Made by a program: the position numbers and the translations under genes. A DNA stretch of 10,930 bases, from positions 1 through 10,930 of the IMG/VR virus record IMGVR_UViG_2531839666_000021; one strand, 5' to 3'. The notes beneath the pieces were generated by a model. That model did not search any database. It had not been told where the DNA came from and saw only the letters and a program-made list of their open reading frames with translations. Each line of letters begins with the position of its first letter. Position 1 is the first letter of the stretch. Positions 1 to 9,281 of this stretch are shown here, piece by piece. Source of the DNA: a virus. Lineage: Duplodnaviria > Heunggongvirae > Uroviricota > Caudoviricetes.

Positions 1-2087
1 ATGTTTGCTTCAGTTAAAGAGCTGGTTGGATTACCGGGAATGCCGGGAACGGAGCAAGGCGTCCGCTATTCAATCAGGAAGTATGCAACCAGCGAAACCA
101 GCAGACGCCGCCAGGAAGGCAGTAAAGGTTTTGAATACAGCATCGACTGTTTACCTGAAGTGACGCAGCAGGCATTACGTGAACGCTACGCCCTGCAACT
201 GATGACTCAAAAAGTCGATGAATCACCGGCTCCAGTGGTGACAAAGGCCAGACGCTCGCCTGCCGTGGTTGATGCGGTGGAGGCATATCGCGGATCACCA
301 CAACTGATGGTTGAACGCCTTAATGCCCTGACCGAAAAACAGCGTCAGGTGGCTGATGCACGCATTGCGATTGTCAGCGAGGTGCTGAAATTCGCGCAAC
401 AACCCGGTTTCAGCTGCGCTAAAGCCATCCGTTTTATCGTTGACCGCCTGTCACGCTCACAACTGGACGAGCGCATTGTGGCAATGGTTGAGACGGCGAA
501 CGCCAAAAAGGGAAACCGACGAGCGTTGAGTGAAATCACGCTGAAACGCTGGATTGCGGCCTTTAACAAGGCACAGAACGCCGCTGAACGCCTGCTTTTA
601 CTGGCACCGGGTAAACGCCAGGAAATAAAAGCCGAAGATATTAACTGGCTGCCCGATTTTCTGGCGCAGTATCGCCAGTCAAACGGCCGACCAATGACCG
701 AGGCTTACGAGGATTTTGTTGCCGAATGGCAGCACCGGCACGCTGATGAGCCTTATATGCTCGATATCATGCCGTCTTACGACACCATCCGCCGCGCAAT
801 GAAGAAACTGCCGGAAGTGGTGAAACAAAAAGGCCGGGTGACAGGCAGTGAATACCGTCAGCTTGAGGGATTCACGCGCCGCGACTGGTCAAAAATGCCG
901 GTGAATTATGTCTGGATTGGTGACGGTCACGGCATGAAGCTGAAATGCGCACACCCGGTTCACGGTCGGCCATTTGCACCGGAAGTGACCTTTGTTATCG
1001 ACGGTGGCACGCGCTTTGTGGTGGGCTGGAGCCTTGACCTGGCTGAAAATGTTTTCGCCGTAGCCGGTGCCATACAGCACGGCATTCGCCATCACGGCAA
1101 ACGTTTCTGTATTACTCGGATAACGGCTCCGGGGAAACCGCCGACATCCTGGATAAGGAGGTTGTGGGGATACTGCCGCGACTGGGGATTAATCACCCGA
1201 CCGGGATTGCCGGTAATCCGCAGGGACGAGGCATTATCGAACGGCTTAACCGCACATTACCGATGCGCATAGCCCGTAAATACCGCACCTATTTCGGGAA
1301 AGGTGCAGATCGCGAGACGTTACGCAAAACCAACCGCGATTTACGCTCGGCATTTACTGCCCTGCAACAGGGCAAACGGCTGAACGCCCGGCAGCAGTCA
1401 GCGATGCGTGATTTACCGTCCTGGTCTGAACTGATTGATGCCATTCGTGACGGTGTTGAGTGGTACAACAACCGGCCGCACGATGAATTACCGGTGAAGC
1501 CGAACGGCAAGCATTACAGCCCGGCGGAGTTCAGAAAAAAACGCCTGGCGGAAGAGGACACGGAAATTGAATGGCTGTCCGATGTTGAGCTGCGGGATAT
1601 GTTCCGGCCGATGGTGGAACGCCCTGTAAGACGCTGTGAAATACGCTGGCTGAATAATATTTACTACGCGCCCGAGCTGCGTGATGAGCATGGCCGCAAG
1701 GTGCTTATCAGCTATGACATTCATGATGCCGAACGAATTACCGTACGTCGCCTGGATGGCAGCGTGATTTGCGAGGCGGTATGGGACGGTAATAAACGCG
1801 AAGCCTTCCCGGTTAGCGCGGAATACTACAAACAGCAGCAACGCCTTAAAGGCATGCGTAAACGCGCAGAGGAAAAAATCCGTGATGCCGAGGATGAGGT
1901 TGTCAACGTGCTGGAGCACAAGCCGCAGGAGCCCTGGCTGGAAAACATCTATCGCCCGGTAGGTAATACGGTGGCCGTTCAGCAACCTGCCGTTGATGAT
2001 GAGCCTGATGAAGAATACGAGCGCAATTTCCAGCGGGGATTGCAGTTGCTCGAAGCGAAATTAAAAGAAAATGACCCGCTGGCCTGA
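1..2087 (+). CDS. Mu-type DDE transposase (MuA-like); reading frame interrupted by a 1-bp frameshift near 1087-1091 (pseudogene or sequencing indel)
   Basis: Frame-1 ORF 1-1272 plus frame-3 reading open from 1047 (track ORF 1164-2087, GTG). N-terminus MFASVKELVGLPGMPGT resembles the MuA N-terminal region. Candidate DDE residues are split across frames: VWIGDGHG (frame 1), YYSDNGSGE (frame 3, about 1110-1136), GIIERLNRTL (frame 3). C-terminal RLDGSVICEA...EYYKQQQRLK resembles the MuA C-terminal domain. Frame switch is required between HGI (1078-1086) and PSRQ (1089-1100). Confidence 0.85.
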
Positions 2088-2157
2088 AATAAAAAATAAC
2101 CCGAGCGGCGACTCAGGTTATTTGATTAAACAAGGTATCAAATGAGAGGTTAATAAT

Positions 2158-3091
2158 ATGACTGATATTAACGATGTAATCAAGACCATTGATGAACTTA
2201 TTGATGGCGGCGTACTGACGCAGTATGCCATCGCCAGAGAGGCGGGAATTTCCGACGGCACATTATCGGCTTTCCGCAAGGGGAAATATAAAGGCGATAA
2301 CGCCGCTGTGGCTGCTTCCCTGCGTTCCTGGTATGAGAACTGGAATAAACAAAGCGCACTGCCGGAACCGCCGCAGTTTGTGGAAACGCAGACAGTTCAG
2401 GAGCTGCGCGCACTGTTTCAGGCGGTTCGCCTGATGGGCTGTATTAACGTCATTGTGGGCGTGCCGGGGGTAGGTAAAAACGGCCACCGCCCGTAATTAC
2501 TGCCAGGAGCAACCAAACACCTGGATGATCACCCTGTCACCCGCGCACTCCAGCGTCACGGAGTGTCTGCTGGAGCTGGCCGATGCGCTGGGGATTGATT
2601 ACACCCGCGCGAACAAAGGGGCATTATCCCGCGCCATCCGCCGTCGCCTGATGGGAACGCGTGGACTGGTGATTGTGGATGAGGCGGATCATCTTGGTAT
2701 TGACGGTCTGGAGCAACTCCGGGCAATTCAGGACGCCACGGGGATCGGGATGGTGCTTATTGGTAACCCGCGCGGATTGTTTAAAGGTGGACGCCGCGCC
2801 TTTGATGATTTATCGCGCCTGTTCAGCCGTCTTGCCCGTACAAAACAACTTCGCAAGGCCAAAAAGGCGGATGTGCTGGCCATTGCCAGGGCATGGGGTA
2901 TCAGTGGTGAGGCCGAGCTGGCCGTCATGCAGGCTATCGCTGAAAAGCCGGGAGCGTTACGCGTTCTGACACATACGCTTAACCAGGCGTGGCTCACCGC
3001 CAGCGGTGAAGGTGCGGCGCTGACAGAAAAACATATTAATGCGGCCTTTAAAGAGGTTTATACCAACCCTGAATTACTCTCACAGGTGTGA
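2158..3091 (+). CDS. MuB-like AAA+ ATPase (transposition target-DNA activator B); frameshifted at A5 run 2476-2480
   Basis: RBS GAGAGG 2144-2149, ATG 2158. Frame-1 ORF 2158-2496 ends GVPGVGK-NGHRP*; frame 2 continues KTATARNY...WMITLSP to stop at 3091. The joined product has Walker A GVPGVGKT and Walker B LVIVDEADHL and resembles MuB over its N-terminus and core. Confidence 0.85.
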
Positions 3092-3315
3092 TTATGGCGG
3101 TATTTTATATTCCTGATATTTACGGACGCTTTTACCTGGTTAATTTCGATAACGTGAAGGTGATTTCACTGGCCGAAAATAAAGAATGTGGCGATTTACT
3201 TTTTGAATTTAATGACCGCACACGAATGGTGATATCTGCCGGACTTGATCGCGAAGGTGCGACAGAAGTTTACAGCGGAATATGCCGTTCTGTTGGTGCG
3301 AAACAAGTCAGCTAA
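3088..3315 (+). CDS. small hypothetical protein (73-75 aa) immediately downstream of B; occupies the position of kil in Mu
   Basis: ORF with GTG 3088 or ATG 3094, overlapping the B stop (3089-3091); AGGTG at 3084-3088. No recognisable motif; the Kil suggestion is positional only. Confidence 0.5.
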   Translation: MIMAVFYIPDIYGRFYLVNFDNVKVISLAENKECGDLLFEFNDRTRMVISAGLDREGATEVYSGICRSVGAKQVS

Positions 3316-8233: not shown

Positions 8234-8423
8234 TCTACCCGCTGGATGGGCGCGGCCACTAATGGCCAGGAAGCATCATTTTTTTAAAACAGGCGAAAGT
8301 ATCAGTATATGTGGACGGTGGTTATATCTGGCTCATAATCGCGAGCCGGATACATTTGAAAGCCCTGATGACTGTGCCGAATGCCGCAGAAGAGTGAATA
8401 AGGAGAAAGATAATGGACAATAG
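8226..8423 (+). CDS. small hypothetical protein (65 aa) with three spaced cysteines, possible zinc-ribbon-like
   Basis: ATG 8226 with SD GGAGGA 8211-8216; overlaps the upstream stop by 8 nt; cysteines in CGRW...CAEC. Confidence 0.45.
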   Translation: MNSLPAGWARPLMARKHHFFKTGESISICGRWLYLAHNREPDTFESPDDCAECRRRVNKEKDNGQ

Positions 8424-8763
8424 TTCTCTGTTGTTCTGGTGCTTATATATCACATCCTTTTTCGGCGCATTTGTTATTACCCGGTGGTTATGTCGAAAGA
8501 TCATCTGCTTTTTTGATAAAAGACATCCGGTTGAACGGGCGGCTGATGCGCTCATTCAGCAGGCCATTGTGTTATATAGCGGTGAATTTTTCTGCCGGAT
8601 AACAACCAGAGATGGCTGGCACATAATGATTATTCCGCCAACACACCATGCCCGGTGGGATGAGGCAGAAAAGGCTTTCCATGTCCGTAAAAAGGTAATA
8701 CGGTATGAGAGGAAAACTGATATCCGCCATTCATGTGGCAAAGCGCGAGCTTGCCCTGGATGA
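8413..8763 (+). CDS. hypothetical membrane protein (116 aa as given)
   Basis: ATG 8413 with SD AGGAG 8401-8405; N-terminal hydrophobic helix LLFWCLYITSFFGAFVITRWL. The 3' end overlaps gemA by 59 nt, which may be an indel artefact at the A5 run 8689-8693. Confidence 0.45.
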   Translation: MDNSSLLFWCLYITSFFGAFVITRWLCRKIICFFDKRHPVERAADALIQQAIVLYSGEFFCRITTRDGWHIMIIPPTHHARWDEAEKAFHVRKKVIRYERKTDIRHSCGKARACPG

Positions 8764-9281
8764 TGAGACTTATACATTCGTGCTGCTGGCAGCCACCGGC
8801 AAAACCAGCTGCCGGGATATGTCACCGGATGAGTTGTCCCGCGTGCTGGATGTTTTCAAAAAACGCGGTTTTAAAGTGCGTCAGAACCCGGTTAACCGGG
8901 CCTTAAAACCGGGTACGGTGACCGCTAAAATTCGCGCCATCTGGAAGGTGATGCACCGGCAGGGCTTTATCTCTGATGGTGTCGGAAACCGCTCTTAACC
9001 GCTGGGTGAAATCGCAGACGGCCGCGCAGAACGGCGGCGAAGGTGTGGCAAACTGGCAGTGGCTGGAGCAACACCCCGCCCTGGCCTCAGATGTGCTGGA
9101 GCGTCTCAAGCGATGGCACCGCCGCAAAATGCTGGCCGCGATGGGAATGCCCGAACGCACGCTGATGGGGTATGACGCCGTTTGCAGGCAGTATGAAAAT
9201 CACTTCCCCGTTAACCCCAAATCCCGCCACAACGCGGGATTTTATTTTAAACTTACCGGGAACGCGAGAACCGGAGGCTGA
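8705..9281 (+). CDS. GemA-like protein (Mu gp16 / DUF1018-like); frameshifted between 8952 and 8995
   Basis: ATG 8705 with AAAGG 8691-8695. N-terminus MRGKLISAIHVAKRELALDDETYTFVLLAATGKTSCRDMSPDELSRVLDVFKKRGFK matches the GemA-type N-terminus as I recall it. Frame 2 stops at 8996-8998 while frame 3 (open from 8952) continues SETALNRWVKSQTA...WQWLEQHPALASDVLERLKRW to 9281. Sits directly upstream of mor, as in Mu. Confidence 0.6.

Follow-up and report, generated by a model that had tools for sequence, protein, structure and literature searches.

The stretch of DNA analysed here (hereafter the window; 10,930 nucleotides (nt), IMG/VR record IMGVR_UViG_2531839666_000021) is the early region of a Mu-like prophage of the kind found in Escherichia coli, in which 10 of 22 genes, including those for the transposase A, the ATPase B, Gam and GemA, are frameshifted by one- or two-base insertions and deletions (indels). 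The frameshifts are truly present in the given sequence, and no normal relative has anywhere near as many. From a comparison of this sequence with those of up to 38 relatives, we posit that they are very probably sequencing or assembly consensus errors over a normal Mu-like prophage. The stored sequence of an intact-type E. coli Mu-like early region would then contain indel errors from consensus building or base-calling, most of them A/T homopolymer runs called one base short, as is typical of long-read-only or poorly polished assemblies. As a consequence of the indels being consensus errors, the apparent splitting of A, B, a kil-like gene, gam, a gp11-like gene, three hypothetical genes, gemA and Rz1 would be an artefact. 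In all likelihood the phage itself encodes the full protein set of its relatives, and the Mu-like prophage beneath the errors is probably functional. The positions and kinds of the indels, their privacy to the window and the lack of other decay are observed directly.

Frameshifted genes in a Mu-like early region

All 10,930 bases of the window match Mu-like prophage early region by megablast, and the window is collinear with its relatives at 97–98.5% identity over its whole length. Annotations of the top-matching relatives all list A, B, gam, gp16 and mor as intact. A three-way alignment of the window with relatives L002 and L001 contained 17 small gaps, each of 1–2 bp, which were mapped against 24 and then 34 relatives (from a panel of up to 38) and checked by local haplotype tables. 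With each 2-bp gap split into its two adjacent runs for event counting, the total for the window is 19 single-base events, of which 16 are deletions and 3 are insertions, at 15–16 sites, corresponding to a density of ~1.7 per kb. Sixteen of the 19 events are in coding DNA, and three intergenic runs are touched. Counted as gap openings relative to the closest relatives, there are 16–18, all of 2 bp or less. The affected genes and the individual events, all on the plus strand, are as follows; numbers of relatives refer to those covering the site, and gene lengths are given in amino acids (aa) and fragments as open reading frames (ORFs).

1..2087, +: Mu transposase A gene, 695 aa if intact; split into ORFs 1–1272 and 1164–2087
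1101..1102, +: one C lost (CC>C), frameshifts A; ancestral GGCAAACCGTT, window GGCAAACGTT; 26/26 covering relatives keep the extra C
2091..2096, +: intergenic A-run, A7>A6; longer in 16/19 relatives
2158..3091, +: MuB AAA+ ATPase gene, 310 aa if intact; split into ORFs 2158–2496 and 2525–3091
2476..2480, +: one A gained (A4>A5), frameshifts B inside the Walker-A GKT codons GGT AAA ACG; 30/30 relatives have A4
3328..3580, +: Kil-like gene, frameshifted, 84 aa; PF26843 label taken from orthologues; frame switch at 3419–3420 (tblastn)
3419..3455, +: four single-base events in a 40-bp part of the Kil-like gene, namely +A (AA>AAA, 3419–3421), -C (CCC>CC, 3436–3437), -A (AA>A, 3440) and -A (A4>A3, 3453–3455); 30/30 relatives differ at each site
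4433..4436, +: A5>A4 in the gam spacer that separates ribosome-binding site and ATG; A5 in 29/32 relatives, window length in 3/32
4441..4970, +: gam gene, 176 aa if intact; split into 4441–4689 and 4638–4970
4624..4628, +: A6>A5, frameshifts gam; 32/32 relatives one base longer
5614..6145, +: Gp11_C-family gene, 177 aa; a 2-bp loss cuts off the first 8 codons
5636..5639, +: 2-bp loss in the Gp11-like gene, GAAGGGG>GAGGG (AA>A plus GGGG>GGG); 34/34 relatives two bases longer
7212..7521, +: hypothetical 103-aa gene (hyp103); AC lost after 7392 (GGTGACCAACAGG>GGTGCAACAGG); 19/19 relatives two bases longer
7536..7901, +: hypothetical 116-aa gene (hyp116); A4>A3 at 7811–7813 alters the C-terminus; 17/17 relatives one base longer
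8413..8763, +: hypothetical 98-aa gene (hyp98); AAA>AA at 8697–8698 swaps the last codons and lengthens the ORF to 8763; 24/26 relatives one base longer, the other two divergent locally
8705..9281, +: gemA/gp16 gene, 169 aa if intact, native end ~9214; split into 8705–8998 and 8976–9281
8982, +: T inserted in gemA outside a homopolymer, GGTGCGG>GGTGTCGG; 26/26 relatives without the T
9196..9199, +: A5>A4 near the gemA 3' end; 19/22 relatives one base longer, the other three divergent, with compensating gaps
9240..9243, +: T-tract shortened, T5>T4, where it follows a GC hairpin (CCCGC...GCGGG) downstream of gemA; 22/22 covering relatives longer
10727..10930, +: Rz1/LysC-like gene overlapping the Rz-like gene, running off the window end; AA>A at 10887; 20/20 relatives one base longer

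Searching the window with intact proteins of relative L026 (tblastn), a form of the frame-switch check proposed with the original prediction, gave switches at the mapped indel sites. In A, which is intact (695–696 aa) in every relative, the frame changes from 1 to 3 at ~1071–1107, leaving HTH_Tnp_Mu_1 in the N-terminal and Mu-transpos_C in the C-terminal fragment (Pfam). MuB switches from frame 1 to frame 2 at 2477–2478 with 100% amino acid identity on either side, and its C-terminal fragment holds AAA_22 and Phage-MuB_C (Pfam). The Phage_Mu_Gam profile is divided between the two fragments of gam (1–50 in the first, 50–149 in the second; frame 1 to 3), as is the GemA profile between those of gemA (1–80 and 81–119; frame 2 to 3 at 8980–8982). 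A hybrid-allele origin of the T at 8982 was considered and rejected, since no relative has a T there (haplotype table). Among the genes of smaller products, hyp103 switches from frame 3 to frame 1 at 7391–7393, with 100% identity on either side, hyp116 from frame 3 to frame 2, with one relative locally identical except for the A4, and the Rz1/LysC-like gene from frame 2 to frame 1 at 10885–10888. For the Gp11-like protein the search covers residues 10–177 only, in frame 2, and the native ATG at 5614 now meets a TGA at 5635–5637. Translation of this gene could start anew at an in-frame TTG (5618) or an ATG (5621), giving a protein identical from residue 10 on; even if real, the 2-bp loss might not inactivate it.

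The original prediction had named seven affected sites, and those in B (the A5 run 2476–2480; here A4>A5 by tblastn and alignment) and gam (the A-run at 4624–4629; here A6>A5 at 4624–4628) were placed exactly. It had also rightly held that A needs a 1-bp indel, and we locate the single C loss at 1102, 11–14 nt from the run at ~1087–1091 to which it was assigned. The gemA lesion expected within 8952–8995 does lie in that range, as the non-homopolymer T insertion at 8982, and the second event in this gene (9196–9199) had been missed. Three sites in cargo genes pointed to the right genes and the wrong runs: the G4 at 7419–7422 in hyp103, the A5 at 8689–8693 in hyp98 and the A4 at 5625–5628 in the Gp11-like gene are all unchanged, and the true lesions, respectively the AC loss after 7392, AAA>AA at 8697–8698 and the 2-bp loss at 5636–5639, are 5–28 nt away. 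The count of seven was itself too low, as 10 of 22 genes are hit. About eight events had been overlooked, the missed sites comprising the Kil-like cluster at 3419–3455, those at 7811–7813 and 10887, and the intergenic runs at 2091–2096, 4433–4436 and 9240–9243.

Private indels and shared substitutions

All coding indels are absent from the 17–34 relatives covering each site, even though these relatives differ among themselves by up to ~15%. Among the indel sites only two intergenic runs also vary among relatives, and both length differences may be natural polymorphism: the run at 2091–2096 because it is length-polymorphic in the panel, and the shortening at 4433–4436 because three relatives have the same length. 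Substitutions behaved differently from indels as the panel grew, the number private to the window falling from 24 with 24 relatives to 10 with 34–38 relatives at an unchanged indel count. This drop places the substitutions of the window within the shared, recombining variation of the prophage family. Locally the disparity is stronger still, with 0 private substitutions versus 11 indel events in window 844–7366, and three substitutions versus six indel bases relative to L026 over 2101–5100. In the Kil-like gene, window 3410–3462 is the commonest haplotype with zero substitutions, the four indels aside (haplotype table). The events are thus private to one assembly, fall in coding and non-coding DNA and bear no sign of selection, as would be expected of an artefact.

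Searches beyond the panel gave the same picture. An index of 153 billion genes contains neither the exact product of the shifted A fragment nor that of the extended hyp98 (116 aa), and 34–50-mers bearing the indels have no exact match in genome, viral and metagenome contig collections. A near-identical intact haplotype was sought via the exact 180-aa hypothetical protein (hyp180) and Gp12-like protein of the window, both of which are widespread, and the best relative is still at 98.5% overall, so that substitutions and indels could be tallied directly against a near-identical haplotype only region by region. Contexts of the private substitutions, read by eye for Dam/Dcm motifs, formed no pattern.

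As a baseline, each of 24 relatives was taken in turn as query and its private small indels and private substitutions were counted. Nineteen of the 24 have zero private small indels and four more divergent ones have 1–2 each; pooled, with the outlier L024 set apart, the relatives have 6 private indel sites versus 425 private substitutions. By the same criteria the window has 12 strictly private indel sites and 24 substitutions (Fisher p = 9e-11 versus the pooled relatives). Five of the six private indel sites in relatives could be mapped on the window, four of them intergenic (two being 27 bp apart and of opposite sign) and one in a coding T-run of a divergent relative. In mutation-accumulation lines of mismatch-repair-deficient E. 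coli, 30,061 substitutions were counted versus 5,324 indels (PMC8510543), that is ~15% indels. At this share, the binomial probability of at least 15 indels among the 25 private events of the window is 3e-7, and that of 11 among 11 is 9e-10.

Of the 24 relatives, L024 (IMGVR_UViG_2617271340_000001, which maps to window 2067–9074) is alone in also being an outlier. Nine private 1-bp indels, seven of them insertions, lie in short runs of its coding genes; L024 has only 10 private substitutions and looks like a second error-laden entry.

Lack of other signs of decay

After repair of the indels no internal stop was found in any of the 22 genes, and comparison with the closest relatives (L026, L002) revealed no gap larger than 2 bp and no insertion or insertion sequence (IS) element. 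The varied lesions of a decaying prophage, namely nonsense codons, larger deletions and IS elements, are therefore missing. Private substitutions have not built up alongside the indels (10 versus at least 15 private indel sites), nor have the disrupted alleles been inherited by relatives, as none of the 38 carries the coding indels. The repaired genes differ from their counterparts by mostly synonymous and conservative changes, for example 10 nt and 0 aa in Gam, and 1 nt and 0 aa in each of MuB and hyp103. Relative to L002, the frameshifted genes have 88 nt and 23 aa differences and the unbroken genes 88 nt and 40 aa differences; with amino acid differences not raised in the frameshifted genes, there is no sign of relaxed constraint.

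Sequence context and origin of the indels

Deletions in the window are concentrated in homopolymer runs: 15 of the 16 fall in runs of at least 2 (background 48%), 10 in runs of at least 3 (18%), 8 in runs of at least 4 (6.9% of bases, p = 4e-6) and 5 in runs of at least 5 (2.4%, p = 3e-5). A or T is involved in at least 14 of the 19 events. Errors in nanopore assemblies are reported to be mostly false deletions in homopolymers of 2–8 nt, most commonly of A/T, with insertions not tied to runs (PMC12007338), and the deletion bias and excess of A/T runs in the window agree with this profile. The original prediction's main points are thereby borne out: the association of the indels with homopolymer runs is significant (8 of 16 deletions in runs of at least 4), no in-frame nonsense codon or deletion accompanies them (no stop in the 22 repaired genes, no gap above 2 bp), and its preference for assembly indel errors over pseudogenisation is supported by every comparative test available.

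Several points weigh against an origin in sequencing. Long runs are intact (A7 at 1535, A8 at 3585, T7 at 8279), and several events lie in two-base runs or outside any run (8982, 7392–7393); with long runs unaffected and a few events outside runs, the error process would not be purely systematic homopolymer compression. Replication slippage in vivo likewise prefers homopolymers and deletions, and sequence context alone cannot discriminate, because slippage and base-callers both fail at runs. Furthermore, the window's own branch length has to be judged from its private sites, as no relative is identical (best 98.5%). That the indels arose in sequencing rather than in the cell is thus something we infer and do not observe.

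The principal biological alternative is that the prophage has genuinely and recently decayed, unselected and perhaps in a mutator host, with true slippage indels inactivating A, B, gam, gemA and other genes. Defective Mu-like prophages exist in enterobacteria, the frameshifts in the sequence as given strike genes essential for transposition, and a preference of slippage mutations for homopolymers would match the window. We nevertheless consider such decay unlikely. The ratio of private indels to private substitutions (at least 15:10) is far from the indel share of ~0.15 seen even with mismatch repair disabled, the window is without nonsense codons, deletions above 2 bp or IS insertion, amino acid changes are not in excess in the frameshifted genes, and the coding-indel alleles are shared by no relative or indexed assembly. 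Four indels in 40 bp without a substitution would moreover be hard to obtain by independent mutations. If the indels are real, a rapid burst of slippage, e.g. a host mutator episode, would have inactivated ten genes before substitutions, nonsense mutations and deletions accumulated, and to this course of events we give only a slim chance.

Two further explanations concern the assembly and the function of the runs. The window could be a hybrid consensus of two or more similar Mu-like copies, from one genome or a mixed sample, with collapsed or cross-mapped reads having made the indels; such mixing would itself be one form of assembly artefact and no biological alternative. Some E. coli genomes do hold up to four matching places for this prophage, and the window is a mosaic of relatives' haplotypes in which the best relative changes between 500-bp bins. 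Such mosaicism is normal in recombining prophages, however, and the indel sites do not coincide with positions polymorphic among relatives, their flanks usually being common haplotype with no mixed substitutions, which makes a hybrid origin very unlikely. Scarcely credible is the notion that the runs are functional, as sites of programmed ribosomal frameshifting or as phase-variable switches of early-gene expression. Every coding site lies in an uninterrupted frame in all 17–34 covering relatives, and ten unrelated genes would need shifting with no common slippery heptamer or downstream structure; in its favour are only the location of the events in short runs and the variation among relatives of the nearby A8/A9 run at 3585–3592. 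Programmed frameshifting and phase variation were accordingly rejected as contradicted, neither the shifted frame nor the shift site being conserved in relatives. Consensus errors over a normal prophage remain, in our judgement, the explanation that best accommodates these observations.

Gene content and variable segments

A matching Mu-like prophage was found by megablast in 249 of 5,426 complete E. coli genomes, with at least 80% of the window covered in 231 and best identities of 98.1–98.5%; no genome among the 5,426 searched is identical to the window. Two Shiga toxin (Stx)-converting phages also contain a matching Mu-like prophage, at 96–97% identity (megablast). The gene order is A, B, kil-like, gam, gp11/gp12-like, gemA, mor, lysozyme and Rz/Rz1. 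The first base of the window is the start codon of A and the last lies inside Rz1, so both ends of the Mu-like element are outside the window. At the left end the MuA-type transposase and MuB AAA+ ATPase genes adjoin (Pfam; full-length by tblastn once frame switches are allowed), and Gam, GemA, Mor and then the lysis genes follow in Mu order (tblastn, Pfam).

The series of intact genes was derived from the RefSeq annotation of L002 (CP062717) and L003 (CP168984) and from gene calls on 14 further contigs. In the relatives it comprises:

Left part: MuA (695–696 aa), MuB (310 aa), a 73-aa gene, a Kil-family gene (84 aa, PF26843), three small genes and Gam (176 aa)
Central part: a 180-aa gene, a Gp11_C-family gene (177 aa), a Phage_Mu_Gp12-family gene (171 aa) and genes of 183, 103, 116, 110, 65 and 98 aa
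Right part: GemA (169 aa), Mor (141 aa), lysozyme, an Rz-like gene (DUF2570) and an overlapping LysC/Rz1-like gene

The exact 180-aa hypothetical protein (window 5068–5610) occurs in 130 index blocks and the Gp12-family protein (6145–6660) in 4,455. In each of the 14 contigs shown, among them a human-associated metagenome scaffold and a Logan assembly, the two proteins are encoded within intact Mu-like prophages, and the genes around hyp180 and the Gp12-like gene are full length. The insertion sites in the host chromosome vary between these 14 contigs, as expected of a transposable phage.

Two segments of the window are not shared by all relatives. The N-terminus of MuA (window 1–131) is matched by only a minority of them (e.g. 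CP062717, GCA_016103275.1 and L022), and the alignments of most relatives start at window 132 or 166. This pattern indicates a putative recombination boundary inside the DNA-binding domain of the A gene. Window 7221–7886, the segment of hyp103 and hyp116, is a variable cassette: about half of the relatives lose nucleotide similarity over exactly these positions; L038 has a different, shorter gene set there, and L001 has an additional 406 bp inserted at 7210.

Between gemA and mor, window 9216–9250 contains a GC-rich hairpin (CCCGCCACAACGCGGG) followed by a T-tract, which looks like an intrinsic terminator, predicted from this arrangement, that would divide the early from the middle operon. An Rfam scan of the window gave no RNA family above threshold.

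The poly-A run at 3585–3592 is not an event of the window, which agrees with most relatives in having A8; L002, L003 and L024 have A9. The run (L002 6587–6595) directly follows the GTG start of a 93-aa gene and puts this GTG out of frame when it is A9. Where the run is A9, RefSeq gives an 88-aa product starting at an ATT codon, L002 and L003 being RefSeq complete genomes. Either natural length polymorphism or an error in the A9 records could account for the A8/A9 difference.

Relation to known elements and implications

The closest known elements are Mu-like prophages of Shiga-toxin-producing and other E. coli (the Stx2c phage LC727881, CP062717, CP168984 and GCA_016103275.1), which have the same gene order and content at 97–98.5% nucleotide identity; in LC727881 the element is annotated as 'inserted Bacteriophage Mu-like phage'. 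These prophages are intact, whereas the window differs from them by 19 single-base indels that break 10 genes and by its own mosaic of shared substitutions. Bacteriophage Mu itself (Muvirus) has the same Pfam domains in the same order (HTH_Tnp_Mu_1/Mu-transpos_C, Phage-MuB_C, Phage_Mu_Gam, GemA, Mor, then lysis genes). At the nucleotide level, however, the window has no match to Mu among 50,697 phage records (megablast), and the interval from gam to gemA is largely filled by different 'hypothetical' genes.

The indels of the window resemble the nanopore-type assembly errors described for Kastor (PMC12007338), with false deletions of 1–2 bases, few losses of non-repeated bases and fragmented genes. 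Unlike in that profile, several of the longest runs of the window are unaffected, and ~1.7 events per kb lies near the top of the range for polished assemblies. L024 bears the same artefact signature as the window with the opposite bias, and its events, being mostly insertions and at other positions, suggest a different platform or chemistry.

Gene calls, pseudogene counts and 'novel ORFs' from the window, and probably from the rest of the source assembly, are unreliable until polished, so the earlier view that ORF calls here are provisional stands. Fragments in the window should not be reported as truncated variants of A, B, Gam or GemA. More generally, comparing private indels with private substitutions across a panel of relatives separates artefact from decay without reads, and it has singled out L024 as another public contig affected in this way. 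Were the indels real, this would be just another defective prophage locus; as consensus errors, which they very probably are, the frameshifts are no feature of the biology, and the prophage type beneath them has already been sampled well.

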